Virus record (IMG/VR): IMGVR_UViG_3300045988_148821
Span: 1-44,815 of that record
Direction: 5' to 3' (one strand)
DNA from: a virus
DNA: 44,815 nucleotides
Part shown: positions 2,526 to 25,147 of the stretch, one piece after another
Numbering within the stretch: the first letter of the stretch is position 1
How the letters are laid out: each line of letters starts with the position of its first letter
The notes under the pieces: model-generated
Told to the model about the DNA's origin: nothing
The model's database searches: none
What the model saw: the letters and a program-made list of their open reading frames with translations, nothing else
Translations under genes and position numbers: made by a program

Positions 2526-2791
2526 TGTGTGAATGCTACCGACGGACGGAATTGTCGGATACCGTTAAACCGATGTTAAGCGCCGACTACAAAGAACGCT
2601 TCAAGGCTGAGTACCTTCAGCTTCTGATCCGAAAGGACAAGCTGGAGACTATGTGCTTCTTTTGGGACAAAGGGGACTTGGACTTTAATCCGACGTGCCC
2701 CCGTGAGCTTTATCAGAAGCAGCTCGACGCTATGAGTAGCTATTTGGATGTGCTTCGGCAACGGGCGAAACTCGAAGGGGTCGAGCTGTGA
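2525..2791 (+). CDS. Hypothetical small phage protein (88 aa)
   Basis: ORF 2522..2791. ATG 2525 overlaps the upstream TGA, and its 3' end overlaps the i-spanin start (GTGA at 2788). Confidence 0.6.
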   Translation: MCECYRRTELSDTVKPMLSADYKERFKAEYLQLLIRKDKLETMCFFWDKGDLDFNPTCPRELYQKQLDAMSSYLDVLRQRAKLEGVEL

Positions 2792-3204
2792 AAGACTACG
2801 TTTACATGGTGGCGGTCGTCTTGGCCTTCGGCGCGGGGGCTTGGTTGACCTCCGCGCACTATGACCGGGAAATTGCCCTCATGGAGGCGGCGCAGTCTGA
2901 CGCGCTGCGGGCGGCGGAGAGAAAGAATGCAGAAGGACTTTCAAAAGCAACAGACACGATCAACTTGGCGCAAGCTGAGTACAACGATTTGCGCAGTGAG
3001 CTTGATCGTGCTCGCGCCCGGTTGCGCCACGCGGACGGTAACGGCTCCGCCGGCGGAGATTCCGCAGACACTCTTAAAAAGCGAGTTGCCCGACTGGAAG
3101 GCCTGGTTCAAAGATTGGCTGACTCTGGTTCAGAGTGCGGCCGACTCTATCAGCGGTGTGCCGCAAACCACGACGCATTAGCTGCAGTAGTAGGAGGAAA
3201 GTAA
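2788..3204 (+). CDS. i-spanin (Rz-like)
   Basis: N-terminal TM (VYMVAVVLAFGAGAWLTS) followed by a long charged coiled-coil region. An embedded +1-frame lipoprotein ORF lies within it, downstream of the endolysin. Confidence 0.8.
   Translation: MKDYVYMVAVVLAFGAGAWLTSAHYDREIALMEAAQSDALRAAERKNAEGLSKATDTINLAQAEYNDLRSELDRARARLRHADGNGSAGGDSADTLKKRVARLEGLVQRLADSGSECGRLYQRCAANHDALAAVVGGK
2927..3181 (+). CDS. o-spanin (Rz1-like lipoprotein) fully embedded in the i-spanin gene
   Basis: ATG 2927 with GGAGAG 6 nt upstream. Signal-like TTICAVSLIVLAPGC with a Cys for lipidation (lipobox slightly non-canonical) and a Pro-rich mature part (TAPPAEIPQ). Confidence 0.7.
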   Translation: MQKDFQKQQTRSTWRKLSTTICAVSLIVLAPGCATRTVTAPPAEIPQTLLKSELPDWKAWFKDWLTLVQSAADSISGVPQTTTH

Positions 3205-3205
3205 G

Positions 3206-3409
3206 ATGGAAGCGGTAAAGGTATTCTGCCCGGAATGCGGGAAGCGTCTCTTCGACCTATCGCTCGAACACCCTCCGGGTGGTACGCTACGGATACGGTG
3301 TCGCAAGTGCAAGACGCTTGATGTATTTGACCTTTCTGTATACAATAAACCCGATCTGCAGAACCGTTCGGATTCTGCTTCACACAAGGCCCCTGAGCCT
3401 AATCCTTAG
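3206..3409 (+). CDS. Mu Com-like zinc-finger protein (putative translational regulator)
   Basis: VFCPECGKRLFDL...LRIRCRKCKTLDVF matches the Com pattern C-x2-C-x-K-x-LF ... IRC-x2-CK (four Cys). 67 aa. Confidence 0.7.
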   Translation: MEAVKVFCPECGKRLFDLSLEHPPGGTLRIRCRKCKTLDVFDLSVYNKPDLQNRSDSASHKAPEPNP

Positions 3410-3447
3410 CGCCAACCGAGCGCACATTTCCAGAGAACCACGAGTTC

Positions 3448-3471
3448 CATGACAACAGGAGTTTTGTCATG
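3448..3471 (+). promoter_or_regulatory. Perfect 8-bp stem-loop occluding the start codon of the gene at 3469
   Basis: CATGACAA (3448-3455) and TTGTCATG (3464-3471) form the stem. The loop CAGGAGTT carries the SD, and ATG 3469-3471 lies in the 3' arm. Confidence 0.6.
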
Positions 3472-4110
3472 GCTTTTGAAGAATCTTCCGGTGTCGCCAA
3501 GGCTGGTTTGACTACCGGCATCATCGGTACCGCTTTGTCGGGTTTGTTGGCCCTTGGTGGAAACGGCGGCGGTCTTTTGGGCGGCGGCCTTTTCGGAAAC
3601 AACAACGCGCAGATGGCGGCCATGGGTGTTCTTGCTGAGAAGGACGCCAAGATCGCTGAGCTGACCGCGCAAAAGTACTCGGACAACCAGGACGCCGTGC
3701 TGTATCAGGCGACCCGTTCCGAGAACGAGAAGCTCGAAAACCGTCTGATGGCTTTCATTACGCCCCTGTCCCAGGAGGCTGCGCAGAACCGCGAACGCGT
3801 TGCAGTGCTCGAAGCTCAGCAGGCGAAGAATGGGGAAATCGCTGATCTGCGCGAAAAGCTCGTTCGCGCCGAACTTGGTGGCCGCATCGACGCTGTGGCG
3901 CAGGCCTGCGACTGCGGCATCCGTCAGAACTCGGCTGCCATTGCCGCCTTGCAGAACACTGTGAACGGCATCACGCAGACGATCATCCCGCAGTCCGTCA
4001 TCTGCCCGCCGGTAATGCCGCGTTACAACGCGTGGCAGGCTCCGGCGACGACTGACGTGGCTCCGGCCACTCAGCCGATTTCCGGTACCGTCCGGGTGCA
4101 GCGGAGCTGA
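3469..4110 (+). CDS. Hypothetical protein with Gly-rich hydrophobic N-terminus and a coiled-coil centre (213 aa)
   Basis: N-terminus GLTTGIIGTALSGLLALGGNGGGLLGGGLFG (glycine-zipper-like), then heptad-like charged region and a Pro-rich tail. No family recognised. Confidence 0.6.
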   Translation: MAFEESSGVAKAGLTTGIIGTALSGLLALGGNGGGLLGGGLFGNNNAQMAAMGVLAEKDAKIAELTAQKYSDNQDAVLYQATRSENEKLENRLMAFITPLSQEAAQNRERVAVLEAQQAKNGEIADLREKLVRAELGGRIDAVAQACDCGIRQNSAAIAALQNTVNGITQTIIPQSVICPPVMPRYNAWQAPATTDVAPATQPISGTVRVQRS

Positions 4111-4112
4111 CC

Positions 4113-4454
4113 ATGAGAATGCCGATTGGAAATCTGCAGGTGGTGGTGCTTGAGTTCGTGCAGCAGGTGCTCATCCCCGCAGCTGAGACGAAGGGCGGCA
4201 TGCTGCCCTTCTCAGTCGGCATCGTCGGGGGCCTTGTTGCGAGACAGGCTCCCGCGATGGCTGCCCAGTATCTTCCCCTGATGAAGTCTCTCGGGATAGC
4301 TGACGAACAAAACCGTATCGACGTTGACCTGCTTTATGAGGAGGTCTCGAAGAATCTCGAAGCGCATCCGTTCAACATCGGGCCGTATAAGCCGGATAAG
4401 GCTGATCTGGATAAGCTGCGGGAAATCATGAACCGCCATGGAGAACAGTCATGA
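4113..4454 (+). CDS. Hypothetical protein (113 aa)
   Basis: ORF starting 2 nt after the previous stop; coding-like composition. Confidence 0.55.
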   Translation: MRMPIGNLQVVVLEFVQQVLIPAAETKGGMLPFSVGIVGGLVARQAPAMAAQYLPLMKSLGIADEQNRIDVDLLYEEVSKNLEAHPFNIGPYKPDKADLDKLREIMNRHGEQS

Positions 4455-4630
4455 ACATGGATCAGACGAAAATGCAGTGCGAACGCGCCGTCACCCAGTT
4501 GACAGAAGAACTGGATCGTCGCCTGGATAACGCGCGGGATTCTTCCCACATGAACCGTGAGGAAATCTGCGCGGTGAAGGACTTGCTCAAGGCCCTTTGG
4601 TATGCGAAGGCTGTCTGCAAAGAAGCATGA
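4451..4630 (+). CDS. Hypothetical protein (59 aa)
   Basis: ATG 4451 overlaps the upstream TGA (ATGA). Reads MNMDQTKMQCERAVTQLTEELDRRLDNARDSSHMNREEICAVKDLLKALWYAKAVCKEA. Just below the ORF-track cutoff. Confidence 0.5.
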   Translation: MNMDQTKMQCERAVTQLTEELDRRLDNARDSSHMNREEICAVKDLLKALWYAKAVCKEA

Positions 4631-4647
4631 CGCCTTCAGGTAAAATT

Positions 4648-4678
4648 GAACCCCGGGTACCTTCGGTGCTCGGGGTTC
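4648..4678 (+). other. GC-rich stem-loop at the end of the cargo operon (no U-tract)
   Basis: GAACCCCG (4648-4655) pairs with CGGGGTTC (4671-4678). Confidence 0.5.
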
Positions 4679-4745
4679 CGTGTCTCAGGCGCTCGAAGGC
4701 GCTCGGAACATCTGCCCGACATTGTACTCATTTCTCGACGGTACT

Positions 4746-5010
4746 GGGGAGAAAAATGGGGAGAATTTTAAAGGTCGCCCGCTATGCCAATAAAGACAGG
4801 GATATTCAATTCTGACCTACCGCACCATTTATAATTTTTTGAAGTACCCCTCGAACGCCCGCCATTATTGGTTTGGGCGTTTTTCTTTGTTTGAAATCCG
4901 CACGCTCAACTACGTTTCTCCCTGCTTTCTCCCTATGAACAAATATGAACAAATGCGAACAAGTGGTAACCTTCGCTAGGGAGAAAACTAGGGAGAAAAT
5001 TTTTCTCCCT
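4746..5010. repeat. attP-like field of short protein-binding-type repeats upstream of int
   Basis: GGGAGAA(A) motif x7: forward at 4746, 4758, 4978, 4990; inverted (TTTCTCCCT) at 4915-4923, 4926-4934, 5002-5010. Three 10-bp-phased (T/C)GAACAA(A/G)T repeats at 4936-4964. Confidence 0.65.
4854..4893 (+). terminator. Terminator-like hairpin plus T-run inside the att region
   Basis: AACGCCC (4854-4860) pairs with GGGCGTT (4875-4881), followed by TTTTCTTTGTTT. Confidence 0.45.
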
Positions 5011-5027
5011 GAAACGGAGGAATTCTC

Positions 5028-6317
5028 ATGGCGGTCAAGATTACCCAGAAGAACGCCTCTGGCTTTCCTGCCGGGGTGTATCAAGATGTATCTCTGCAGT
5101 GCTTCTATCTGATAGTCCAAAAGGGCGAGAAGTATCGGTGGTGGGTTTACCGGCGCACAATCAACCGGAAACGGTACGACACCGGGCTGGGGAGCGTGGC
5201 GAAAGTTCCTTTGGCTAAGGCAAGGGCTGCAGCGCAGAAACTGAGTGCACTCACTGATGACGAGTTCCTGGCGATGCGTGAGCAGAAGAAGGAGAAGCGA
5301 GAAGCCGAGAAGGCCCCGGCGAAAAAAGACATTACGTTCGCCCAGGCGGCCGAACTCTACATTGCCCGTCAGTACGAAGAACGGTATTGGACGCAGGAGA
5401 AGTCAGGTGAGAAGACTTTCCGGAATCATTTGAAAAACCACATACTGCCTTTTATAGGTGAAGTTCCGGTAGACCAACTGACGCCCGAAGATGTGCAGTT
5501 GGTGGCCGAAGATACCAAGGACATACCGGCGACGCAGGAACGCTGCTTGTCGCATATCTCCGTTGTCCACACATGGGCTGGCTCAAGAAAGTATCTTTCT
5601 GATCCAGACAGGCGCAGCCCGGCTAGTAAGCAAGGGCGGCTACGGTTCATGATTCCGGCGACAAAAGTAAAGAGGGGCCATCGTGGCGCTCTGTCTCCGG
5701 AAGATCTACCCAACTTTTTCGCTGCCTGCATGGCGCAACCCCAGATCATCAGCCGACAGTGCTTTGAGCTTTCTATTTTGTGCGCTCTGCGTTCGGAGAC
5801 GGCTCGCAAACTACGGTGGGAACACGTCAGGTGGGACGAGAAGATTATCGTGTGTCCGCCTGAGATCATGAAGGTTCCGGAGAATGGCCCGCTGGTGGTT
5901 CCGATGTGCCCACGTGTTGAGGCGTTTTTAAAAACGGTCAACCCGAATCCGCCGGCGGAGGGCTTGATCTTCTCGAATCATTGGGGCGAATTGCTGACCG
6001 ACTCGATAATTAGCCGATATGTAAAGCTGACTCCGGGCAAATGGATTGATAAGCAGCAGACGTTGTTGCAAGGGAAAGAAGTCCGGGCGACTCAGCACGG
6101 CATAGCCCGGGCCACGTTTATGACATGGAGTCAGGACGACGTGCTGGGGAATGACTTGCGGTTTGACGTGAAGGTGGCGCACCGGGCGCTGCATCATAAG
6201 GTGAAAGATGACGGCGGGGATGGGGCCTACGAGCGGCAGACGTTGTTCCTGCGCCGGCGCGAACTGATGACCGCGTGGGCGGATTACTGTTTCAGTAAGG
6301 TGAAGGAAGCTGTATGA
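5028..6317 (+). CDS. int: Tyrosine recombinase/integrase, P4-like
   Basis: N-terminal arm-binding-like region (FYLIVQKGEKYRWWVYRR). Catalytic signature ALRSETARKL ... HGIARATF (H-x-x-R) ... HRALHH...GAYERQ (Tyr). SD GGAGG sits upstream of ATG 5028. Confidence 0.9.
   Translation: MAVKITQKNASGFPAGVYQDVSLQCFYLIVQKGEKYRWWVYRRTINRKRYDTGLGSVAKVPLAKARAAAQKLSALTDDEFLAMREQKKEKREAEKAPAKKDITFAQAAELYIARQYEERYWTQEKSGEKTFRNHLKNHILPFIGEVPVDQLTPEDVQLVAEDTKDIPATQERCLSHISVVHTWAGSRKYLSDPDRRSPASKQGRLRFMIPATKVKRGHRGALSPEDLPNFFAACMAQPQIISRQCFELSILCALRSETARKLRWEHVRWDEKIIVCPPEIMKVPENGPLVVPMCPRVEAFLKTVNPNPPAEGLIFSNHWGELLTDSIISRYVKLTPGKWIDKQQTLLQGKEVRATQHGIARATFMTWSQDDVLGNDLRFDVKVAHRALHHKVKDDGGDGAYERQTLFLRRRELMTAWADYCFSKVKEAV
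5494..5532 (+). promoter_or_regulatory. Degenerate sixth copy of the late bipartite element, inside the int coding sequence
   Basis: TGCAGTTGGTG (10/11) at 5494-5504, an 18-nt spacer, then ATACCGGCGA (9/10 to copy 2 box 2) at 5523-5532. Confidence 0.45.
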
Positions 6318-24047: not shown

Positions 24048-24464
24048 ATGCTTTTTGATAATGATCTCATGTTCTCGGACGGGCAGACCTTCTCGGCCAC
24101 GGCCTCCGGAACGAAAGTGATTGACTGCGGCCAGGCCATCCTTACCACCGGCATCAACGGTGTTATTGATCTTTATGTCCTGGCTATTGTGACGACGGAC
24201 TTCACCGGCACTGGCACGATTAAGGTTGAGCTGCAGGACTGTGATACTGAAAACGGCACGTTTACTACGGTGGCTTCAGCACCGGCCGTGGTGGCGACGA
24301 AGTTCGCGAAGGCCGTTATCCCGATGCCGCTTGAGCATCGCCGCTACCTGAAGCTCACCTACACCGTGGACGGTACGGTGACCGCCGGCAAGGTGACGGC
24401 AGGTATCACGACGAGCCTCGAATCGCATCAGCTCTTTCACGCGGAAGACTATTCCTTCCAGTGA
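24048..24464 (+). CDS. Putative capsid decoration/cement protein
   Basis: 138 aa, beta-rich composition, directly after the capsid gene and followed by a strong terminator. Confidence 0.4.
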   Translation: MLFDNDLMFSDGQTFSATASGTKVIDCGQAILTTGINGVIDLYVLAIVTTDFTGTGTIKVELQDCDTENGTFTTVASAPAVVATKFAKAVIPMPLEHRRYLKLTYTVDGTVTAGKVTAGITTSLESHQLFHAEDYSFQ

Positions 24465-24526: not shown

Positions 24527-25147
24527 ATGGCGACTGAAGTAGATATTTGCAACACCGCCTTGTCGCTCCTGGGGTGCCGTGCGGACATAGCCAGTATCTC
24601 ACCGGTGGAGGGCGGCCGCTTTGCGGAGGTGTGCGCCCGAGAGTATCCGATTGCCCGGAACTTGGTGCTTGAGGCTCACGACTGGAGCTTTGCGTGCCGG
24701 CGGGCCAACTTAGCCGTTTTGCGCACCGACCTCTTCGGGTGGCAGTTCGGGTATGTTCGGCCGGCGGATGCCGTGAGCATTGTGGCCGTCGTTCCGGAAG
24801 ATGACAGATACTTTGAACACCCGCACGAATTCATTGTGGAGGCCGACCAGGAATCCGGGGTGAGCCTCATCCTCACAGATCTTCCGGGGGCCGTCTGTCG
24901 CTATCTGGCCCGCGTCACAAACACGTCACTCTTTCCGGAACAGTTCTGCCAGGCCGTGGCGTTCAAACTCGCGATGCGCCTTTCCGGAAACATCATCAAG
25001 GGGACGCCGGGGCAGCAGGTGGCGGTGAACCTTGAGAAGCAGTATCAGACGATTTTGGCGTCAGCCATTCATTTCGACATGAAGCAGCGCCGCAAAGATT
25101 TAGATCTCCGCGCGACGTGGTCTAAGAAGCGGGGGTTAAGAGTATGA
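24527..25147 (+). CDS. Head-tail adaptor / tail tubular protein A-like
   Basis: N-terminus EVDICNTALSLLGCRADIASISPVEGGRFAEVCAREYPIARNLVLEAHDWSFA matches the gp11-like adaptor pattern. Confidence 0.7.
   Translation: MATEVDICNTALSLLGCRADIASISPVEGGRFAEVCAREYPIARNLVLEAHDWSFACRRANLAVLRTDLFGWQFGYVRPADAVSIVAVVPEDDRYFEHPHEFIVEADQESGVSLILTDLPGAVCRYLARVTNTSLFPEQFCQAVAFKLAMRLSGNIIKGTPGQQVAVNLEKQYQTILASAIHFDMKQRRKDLDLRATWSKKRGLRV

Follow-up and report, generated by a model that had tools for sequence, protein, structure and literature searches.

The Com/mom system of phage Mu is the textbook example of a protein that activates translation by remodeling an inhibitory mRNA structure, and to our knowledge it has been studied in essentially one phage and with one target. 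Here we describe a locus in a 44,815-nucleotide (nt) virus sequence (IMG/VR record IMGVR_UViG_3300045988_148821, positions 1 to 44,815; this whole stretch is referred to as the window) that, judging from its sequence, probably works as a Com-type translational activation switch. It comprises a gene for a 67-amino-acid (aa) zinc-ribbon protein (3206-3409, stop codon TAG at 3407-3409) and the leader of the next gene (3469-4110), which encodes a 213-aa protein and is predicted to be the controlled gene; all of these elements lie on the plus strand. An earlier reading of the same DNA, made without database searches (the sequence-only reading), had drawn the analogy with Com/mom. This analogy has held up, on the basis of a hairpin that exactly matches the Com motif obtained by the systematic evolution of ligands through exponential enrichment (SELEX), the same layout as in Mu, a link to Mu Com through the PHROG database, the co-occurrence of the open reading frame (ORF) with an array of hairpins, and a target that is not Mom-like.

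Nowacka et al. (2019; PMC6483171) applied SELEX to a Mu-like Com from Haemophilus and arrived at the bipartite motif NGAGNNCC(N)2-3GAGNNCCNN, whose loop part, CC(N)2-3GAG, is bound by Com within a short hairpin that a C-G pair closes. The native Mu site, GAAUGCCUGCGAGCAUCCC, is located just 5' of the translation inhibition structure, the stem of which contains the mom start codon (PMC6483171). In the Mu leader (AF083977), the hairpin AUGC-cugcga-GCAU is followed with no spacer by CCCACG-gagaaacau-UGUGGG, whose loop carries a GGAG Shine-Dalgarno sequence (SD) and whose 3' arm includes the GUG start codon. Com homologues of FluMu (HI1522.1/HI1523), Pnm1 and phage B3 (ORF47/48) precede DNA adenine methyltransferases, and possible Com-binding sites have been noted at the 5' end of those methyltransferase genes (PMC3299994). 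In Pseudomonas, a PF10122 gene stands in front of approximately 90% of the llpA genes, which encode L-type bacteriocins, and likewise of other tailocin cargo, sometimes a tailocin lytic enzyme, and glycosyl hydrolases; the passages of that review drawn on here state that the regulatory role of the com-like gene "remains to be explored" (PMC6240691).

The leader of the 213-aa gene

The sequence CATGACAA (3448-3455) forms a perfect 8-base-pair (bp) duplex with TTGTCATG (3464-3471), and one extra C-G pair extends this to a 9-bp stem, 3447-3455/3464-3472, with the arms CCAUGACAA/UUGUCAUGG. The 8-nt loop (3456-3463) is CAGGAGTT (as RNA, CAGGAGUU) and carries the SD, AGGAG, at 3457-3461, and the start codon ATG (3469-3471) is inside the 3' arm. 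A start codon within a perfect stem and an SD in the loop had been described in the sequence-only reading, and both are seen, with a stem that is even longer at 9 bp. The predicted translation-inhibition stem-loop thus occupies 3447-3472 (from sequence and RNAfold), and its 9-bp stem is present in both the minimum free energy (MFE) and the centroid structure.

Taken alone, this stem is within chance expectation. Its folding z-score is -1.85 in a 51-nt segment and -0.97 in a 96-nt segment, and perfect hairpins of 9 bp or more number 4 in the window (5 if two overlapping versions of one are counted separately), compared with 2.5 +/- 1.8 in shuffled sequence. What takes the stem beyond chance is that it sits on the SD and start codon, is conserved with compensatory variants, and has an exact Com-site motif directly 5'. 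A terminator reading of 3447-3472 was rejected, there being no U-tract and the loop being occupied by the SD.

The proximal hairpin, GAAC-cacga-GUUC at 3435-3447 (3433-3448 with flanks), is the candidate Com-binding site. This GAAC/GTTC mini-hairpin, which the sequence-only reading had placed against the 5' side of the stem, is seen in the sequence directly 5' of it, with C3447 common to both structures. The flanked site reads GAGAACC-AC-GAGUUCC (GAGAACCACGAGTTCC) and agrees exactly with the SELEX motif (PMC6483171). Searching both strands with the pattern GAGNNCCNNGAGNNCC gives 1 match in the 44.8 kilobases (kb), compared with 0.13 expected. The site differs from the designed binders RNA I and RNA II of the same study (CGAGAACCAGAGAGUUCCGG, AGAGAACCCGGAGUUCCCU) essentially in loop bases alone.

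Two more hairpins of the Com type are found upstream. The middle one, GCGC-caaccga-GCGC at 3409-3423, has a C-N4-GA-like loop, and its first base is the last base of the TAG stop codon. The distal one, AGGC-cccuga-GCCU at 3387-3400, has a loop with CC-N-GAG and is located within the 3' end of the zinc-ribbon ORF. All three hairpins, like the stem, belong to the sense strand and fall in the 5' leader of the 213-aa gene. Loosely defined hairpins of this type (4-bp stem, G-U allowed, loop N2-4) are not rare, with 15 in the window versus 19.9 +/- 4.3 in shuffled sequence; it is the strict motif, the clustering of three hairpins within 61 nt of the sense strand, their position and their conservation that are meaningful. 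Matches to the loose motif in structural genes (24322-24340 and 24767-24781) were judged to be due to chance.

Conservation among related loci

A total of 65 related loci (given L numbers) was collected. In class A the 213-like protein is mostly at least 60% identical, and an upstream zinc-ribbon ORF of the form CxxC...CxxC (CxC in L021, L029 and L034) is found in all loci, with 27-81% identity to the window protein in the alignment. Conservation of the start-occluding hairpin in relatives had been set as a test in the sequence-only reading, and the stem is indeed kept in class A with compensatory changes, except in a small group represented by L013. In the class A leaders scored, the stem has the ATG in its 3' arm and starts at -19 to -26. 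It occurs in six compensatory versions: CCATGACAA/TTGTCATGG; CCATAGCAAA/TTTGCTATGG, which is 9 bp in L064 (CCATAGCAA/TTGCTATGG); GCATAGCA/TGCTATGT; CATAGCA/TGCTATG, as RNA (G)CAUAGCA/UGCUAUG(U); CCCATGAT/GTCATGGG; and CCTGTGACAAA/TTTGTCATGGG. Written as RNA, the compensatory versions in relatives include CCAUAGCAAA/UUUGCUAUGG, CCCAUGAU/GUCAUGGG and CCUGUGACAAA/UUUGUCAUGGG.

Pairing was counted in a model-fitted alignment of 12 distinct leaders, which replaced a MAFFT alignment that mis-registers L016, L022 and L027. The figures lean towards the model and are conservative in that the same three rows are still mis-registered and their pairing undercounted: 82.4% of cells are paired, compared with 29-42% when the partners are slid, double-sided changes affect three pairs (seven cells), and the covariation score is 0.170, compared with 0.107 +/- 0.017 in shuffles, none of 500 shuffles reaching 0.170.

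The hairpin array is conserved along with the stem. Relative to the ATG, a scan of the leaders for stem-CC(N)2-4GAG-stem placed the three hairpins at approximately -80, -57 and -33 in every class A locus outside the L013 group; in that group the scan found the proximal hairpin alone and not the other two. CC(N)2-3GAG is located at -30 to -36 in every class A leader scored. The proximal stem varies between GAAC/GUUC, AAGC/GCUU and AGC/GCU, with ACGC/GCGU at about -32 in L013, and the distal stem, at about -74 to -84 in the array-bearing class A loci, between AGGC/GCCU, GGC/GCC and GAC/GUC. The middle stem is invariant, so that no covariation test is possible for it. Its sequence is nevertheless kept both where it is coding (L028, L063, L021) and where it is non-coding (the window, L016, L027). 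The array as a whole may be found in the 3' end of the ORF (L028, L063), across the stop codon (the window) or wholly between the genes (L027, with a gap of 114 nt). Retention of the array regardless of coding status points to selection on the nucleic acid, not the peptide. In keeping with this, identity across 3351-3470 is 97-100% when the window is compared with loci in which the genes on either side have only 47-85% identity.

The group formed by L013, L014 and L015 has a Com-like ORF that is nearer to that of Mu (MQAKRCDNCNKKLFE...CPRCK), and its site, GAACGCC-GC-GAGCGUU, is close to Mu's own.

Class B consists of L038-L062, in which the 213-like protein is about 50% identical (30% in L061 and L062); L065 behaves likewise. 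In class B (approximately 20 distinct leaders) and L065, no CxxC ORF was found within 600 nt upstream and no Com-type hairpin. The start codon of these loci is buried in a different manner, by a 9-bp hairpin (at about -9 to +12 in class B) that pairs SD-proximal bases with codons 2-4 (GGUGAAUUC) and leaves the AUG as a triloop. In class B, changes in the 5' arm of this hairpin are transitions only, and pairing is kept; upstream of it is a strong hairpin, GCGCGAGG...CCUCGCGC, followed by Us, possibly a site of termination or antitermination where the late operon begins. Across the relatives, the putative regulator gene and its presumptive sites are thus present together and absent together. The split between the two classes is essentially one phylogenetic event and therefore counts as one observation, not twenty.

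The zinc-ribbon protein

The 67-aa product reads MEAVKVFCPECGKRLFD...LRIRCRKCK. Its N-terminal zinc ribbon is of the Cys4 type, with CPEC at residues 8-11 and CRKC at residues 32-35, and includes a GKRLFD motif; the tail is rich in Pro, Ser and Asn and, from its composition only, is predicted to be disordered. The protein is matched by PHROG 6417, annotated as "translational regulator", with an expectation (E) value of 4.7e-4 (21 bits, residues 3-58). This profile is matched by 8 of 10 aligned members, Mu Com included (2.8e-10), with orthologues at E values from 5.4e-9, the best outside Mu, to 6.8e-5; the orthologue from L027 gave no match to it. A second profile, phrog_13819 (gpCom), is matched by two orthologues (1.4e-4 and 1.4e-3). 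When the protein is aligned with its orthologues and Mu Com, the four Cys, F16 (the Phe of K-x-L-F) and the Lys after the last Cys are invariant. Judged by its sequence, the protein is a divergent Com-like zinc ribbon that lies outside Pfam-defined membership. A word-indexed search with it recovered close relatives only.

In L021, L029 and L034 the Com-like ORF (e.g., at about 2610-2820 in L021) has CxC in both knuckles, VRCRCGKRLFD...ILCRCK, and the three hairpins and the start-occluding stem are intact. Since the loss of one residue matches in both knuckles, CxC looks like a genuine variant and not an assembly error. The source annotation of L016 and L024 has no call for the Com-like gene, although it is present there (at 4705-4935 in L016), with the holin on one side and the 213-like gene on the other. 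It is probable that annotations miss small Com-like ORFs, a point also made in the Pseudomonas literature.

Proposed mechanism

MFE folds predict a lower helix (3441-3478) beneath the occluding stem, in which CGAG (3441-3444), the 3' half of the proximal Com site, pairs with UUUG (3475-3478, codons 3-4). This helix is weak in the window and in most relatives amounts to 6 bp (GAGUUC/GAAUUU). When folded without constraints, most class A leaders pair CGAGUUC with codons 3-5 (GAAUUUG) and do not form the Com hairpin, the two structures being mutually exclusive in the folds. Forcing the Com hairpin to form takes 1.3-4.7 kcal/mol and does away with the lower helix as well as the outer C-G pair, and a stem of 8-10 bp is left (8 bp over the AUG in the window).

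The reading frame, motifs, predicted structures, conservation, covariation and co-occurrence described above, with the Mu-like layout, can be fitted to a mechanism in which the binding of protein to RNA, the direction of regulation, the conformational switch and its timing would be as follows. The zinc-ribbon protein would be made from the late lysis transcript. In its absence, the SD and AUG of the 213-aa gene would be locked in the stem-loop, and in most relatives the lower helix would lengthen the lock. The protein would then bind one to three of the small leader hairpins of the next gene, which have stems of 3-4 bp and, in the distal and proximal cases, CC(N)2-3GAG, perhaps cooperatively over the three sites. 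By capturing the proximal hairpin form, it would withdraw the lower helix and the outermost C-G pair from the inhibitory structure, allowing ribosomes to initiate. The outcome would be a delayed, threshold-like synthesis of the 213-aa protein. Destabilization of an inhibitory structure by hairpin capture is the model that has been proposed for Mu (PMC6483171).

Counter-evidence and alternative explanations

Several findings weigh against a Com-type switch. The weakest step of the model is the opening itself: after the proposed switch an 8-bp stem is still over the AUG, so that energy alone does not explain why it should open. The SELEX motif was derived from the Com of Haemophilus sputorum, which is very distant from the 67-aa protein. 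For the L013 group, the search for a hairpin of 5 bp or more across the ATG gave none, and the MFE fold has a 7-bp hairpin just 3' of the start codon. Conservation among close loci could result largely from recent module exchange.

The family assignment is also affected. The sequence-only reading had stated that the 67-aa product matches the Com zinc-finger pattern and had named a Pfam search for Mu-like Com as a check. The first statement stands as far as PHROG 6417 is concerned and fails for Pfam, where PF10122 (Zn_ribbon_Com) gave no match to the window protein even at E<=10. None of the 7 orthologues reaches the PF10122 gathering threshold of 22.9 bits, the best scoring 16.6 and the next 14.1 bits, whereas Mu Com, as the positive control, scores 36.8 bits. 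The check was therefore negative for the window protein and sub-threshold for its orthologues, and the PHROG profiles are more informative.

These findings bear on the alternative that survives best, although it is unlikely. The stem could be a constitutive attenuator that keeps synthesis of the 213-aa protein low relative to the lysis genes and is opened by ribosomes or temperature, with the zinc ribbon binding DNA or protein instead. The only Pfam matches of the 67-aa protein are to generic zinc-ribbon families, all below threshold, and the stem alone is statistically ordinary. Furthermore, class B covers its ribosome-binding site (RBS) with a different hairpin and carries no CxxC ORF in the 600 nt upstream, so that occlusion of the same start does not of itself require Com. 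A constitutive attenuator leaves unexplained, however, the exact Com-site motif that abuts the stem, the three-hairpin array with its covarying stems, the co-occurrence of this array with the zinc-ribbon gene, and the PHROG link to Mu Com.

Quite improbable is an explanation at the level of DNA, in which the repeats would be operators or part of a late promoter for the three downstream genes, with the zinc ribbon as a transcription factor, or else a recombination joint of mosaic modules. Homology between the window and L001-type phages starts at the start of the zinc-ribbon gene, as expected of a mosaic module, and the block 3351-3470 is nearly invariant among close loci. A weak sigma-70-like match is present inside the zinc-ribbon ORF at 3318-3346 (TTGATG-17-TACAAT, 9/12), but it scores only 9/12, and promoter-like matches exceed the expectation from shuffles only about twofold (4 against 1.8). 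The stems covary and the loops keep CC(N)GAG, as is predicted for an RNA hairpin and unlike a DNA operator, and the three repeats and the stem are all on the sense strand in the 5' leader of a gene. As a separate observation, this weak sigma-70-like match, if active in the host, would start a transcript just 5' of the three-hairpin array.

Translational coupling is very improbable. In this reading, a ribosome reaching the end of the zinc-ribbon ORF would unfold the structure and start again at 3469, and the ORF product would be irrelevant. The two genes follow one another on the same strand, no terminator-like site separates them, and the ORF of L028 and L063 stops only 32-33 nt short of the target start. 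In the window, however, the stop codon is 59 nt from the ATG and 38 nt from the stem, and the gaps in L027 and L013 are 114 and 87 nt; given the established ribosome footprint, these distances would be too great for a terminating ribosome to open the stem. In addition, the protein sequence itself is conserved in its four Cys and its GKRLFD motif.

The downstream genes

Under the Com-type switch, the target would be the first gene of a trio that encodes proteins of 213, 113 (4113-4454) and 59 aa (4451-4630), the last gene overlapping the stop codon of the second. The 213-aa protein has a Gly-rich hydrophobic N-terminus and a Cys/Pro-rich tail. Its structural model consists of one long helix (residues 47-171) with disordered ends, including the N-terminus, at a predicted local distance difference test score (pLDDT) of 63.6. 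No significant match was found in Pfam, PHROG, NCBIfam or PADLOC, and profiles of the family (9 and 61 members) searched against the PDB returned coiled-coil noise only. The family is large: a word-indexed search gave 689 relatives, and clustering at 50% identity (E<=1e-3) gave 323 clusters.

The 113-aa protein is confidently modeled as an alpha-rich fold (pLDDT 90, predicted template modeling score 0.79). This fold has no PDB match with E<=0.001 and matches uncharacterized viral proteins only, including two weaker matches from the uncultured phages cr118_1 and cr108_1. A gene of similar size to that for the 59-aa protein is called at the same place in all related loci. None of the three products matches Mom or methyltransferases in Pfam, PHROG, NCBIfam or PADLOC, and PADLOC and NCBIfam searches with the four proteins of the module gave nothing useful. 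With the single long helix of the 213-aa model, this bears out the view that the payload is not Mom-like.

The trio adjoins lysis genes in at least 4 gene orders and with three sets of holin and endolysin: after holin-endolysin-spanin, between holin and lysozyme, before holin-lysozyme-spanin, and before holin-M15-spanin. It is also found in the AT-rich contig L065. The steady association with lysis genes suggests a role in or around lysis, or a cargo that is released at lysis. Toxicity of the payload is a guess from sequence. A bolder proposal, possible but rather doubtful, is that the trio is an unrecognized component of lysis cassettes, the first product of which would be a harmful membrane-active coiled coil with its RBS buried in two independent ways; in one lineage a divergent Com would read a cooperative array of three hairpins, producing a sharp, late, all-or-none switch. 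If true, this would be a natural protein-RNA timer distinct from the single-site system of Mu.

Genomic setting

From gene order and domain annotation, the window represents the end of a prophage. A tail fiber with an endosialidase-chaperone domain (7-1191) is followed by a holin (1252-1653), an M15 endolysin (1782-2312), a protein of the crAss001_48/Sequestin family (2522-2791), a spanin-like coiled-coil protein with a membrane segment at its N-terminus (2788-3204, stop codon 3202-3204), the zinc-ribbon gene and then the trio (3469-4630, plus strand), with a tyrosine integrase (5028-6317) downstream. The SD of the zinc-ribbon gene (GGAGG, 3193-3197, plus strand) is located within the 3' end of the spanin-like ORF, and the gap between the spanin-like stop codon and the ATG at 3206 is 1 nt. 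This gap and the position of the SD suggest that the zinc-ribbon module is read with the late lysis genes, to which the zinc-ribbon gene may possibly be coupled translationally. BLAST searches with the DNA of the module and with the Com-like protein against deposited phages gave no match, nor did an Rfam scan of 3150-5100 (E<=1).

Several additional features were observed in this region. An ORF at 2861-3181, out of frame inside the spanin-like gene, contains LIVLAPGCATRTVTAPPAEIP and by its sequence could be an o-spanin lipoprotein, although the lipobox is non-canonical; a clearer candidate for an embedded o-spanin is present in L016 (6877-7140, MLSAC...). Just 3' of the 59-aa ORF there is a strong hairpin, AACCCCGG...CGGGGTT, at 4649-4677. 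After this comes GGCGCTCGAAGGCGCTC, which on the minus strand reads GAGCGCC-TTC-GAGCGCC (4688-4704) and is the sole match in the window to the form of the Com motif with a 3-nt spacer. The segment 4604-4716 is still 82-87% identical in L005, where identity in the adjoining genes is down to 33-48%. In L021, a 442-aa ORF (4122-5450, minus strand) is located about 100 nt past the trio, at the place of the integrase or host genes elsewhere; by eye it looks like a group II intron reverse transcriptase/maturase.

The sole matches in genome collections are L063 and L064, contigs of metagenome-assembled genomes that are labeled Coriobacteriaceae and Collinsella, which are Gram-positive. These were rejected as hosts because the labels conflict with the spanin-type genes, and mis-binning of the two contigs is probable. 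An autotransporter gene flanks L001.

Comparison with known systems

The locus shares several features with Mu Com/mom. Both encode a small protein with an N-terminal Cys4 zinc ribbon and a disorder-promoting tail just upstream of the target and in the same transcription unit. In both, a short hairpin that is closed by a C-G pair and has CC(N)2-3GAG as its loop (PMC6483171) is followed with no spacer by a stem-loop that has the SD in its loop and the start codon in its 3' arm. The differences are equally clear. The target in Mu is Mom, whereas that in the window has no match to a DNA-modification domain. Mu com (401-589) overlaps mom (start at 540), whereas the regulator ORF of the window stops 59 nt before the start of its target. 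There are three tandem Com-type hairpins in the window and one in Mu; the start codon is AUG and GUG, respectively, and the inhibitory stem 9 bp and about 6 bp. Mu Com is above the Pfam Com threshold and the window protein below it. Finally, mom is located at the genome end of a transposable phage and has a late promoter of its own under the control of Dam and C, whereas the module in the window, from gene order alone, comes after holin, endolysin and spanin and before a tyrosine integrase.

FluMu, Pnm1 and phage B3 resemble the window in having a Com-like gene immediately upstream of a gene that is not mom. There the payloads are DNA-modification enzymes at the right end of Mu-like transposable phages, whereas the window has a coiled-coil/alpha-helical trio, and phages of the window type are not Mu-like but carry integrases, either tyrosine-type or a serine recombinase (L015). 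The Pseudomonas tailocin clusters, as far as covered by the passages drawn on here, are similar in that a small Com-like gene is directly before a cargo gene and beside a lysis cassette. The protein subfamily, host range and cargo are different, and those passages of PMC6240691 name no RNA target, whereas in the window locus an RNA signature, consisting of a binding motif and a start-occluding stem, has been identified and is conserved.

If the Com-type switch is correct, the locus would be a second, well-diverged instance of the Com/mom principle in which protein, binding motif and inhibitory stem can all be read from the sequence, and the dozen or so natural variants with compensatory changes make the mechanism directly testable. 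Two features not established for Mu are suggested, namely a tandem array of three hairpins, with which cooperativity is possible, and a lower helix that competes with the binding hairpin. The locus also flags an uncharacterized three-gene module within the lysis cassettes of many gut phages, and it lends support to an idea that Pseudomonas bacteriocin and tailocin cargo had already prompted, namely that late, possibly harmful phage cargo is generally gated by Com-like proteins.

The use of Com logic on an unrelated target, as proposed in the sequence-only reading, is thus supported in silico and is less new than was thought. On the evidence of PMC3299994 and the passages cited from PMC6240691, Com-like genes precede non-Mom cargo (methyltransferases, bacteriocins, a lytic enzyme and glycosyl hydrolases), and the arrangement itself is therefore not new. 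What is new here is a subfamily below the Pfam threshold, a readable and conserved RNA signature, the three-hairpin array, the competing lower helix, and the payload.

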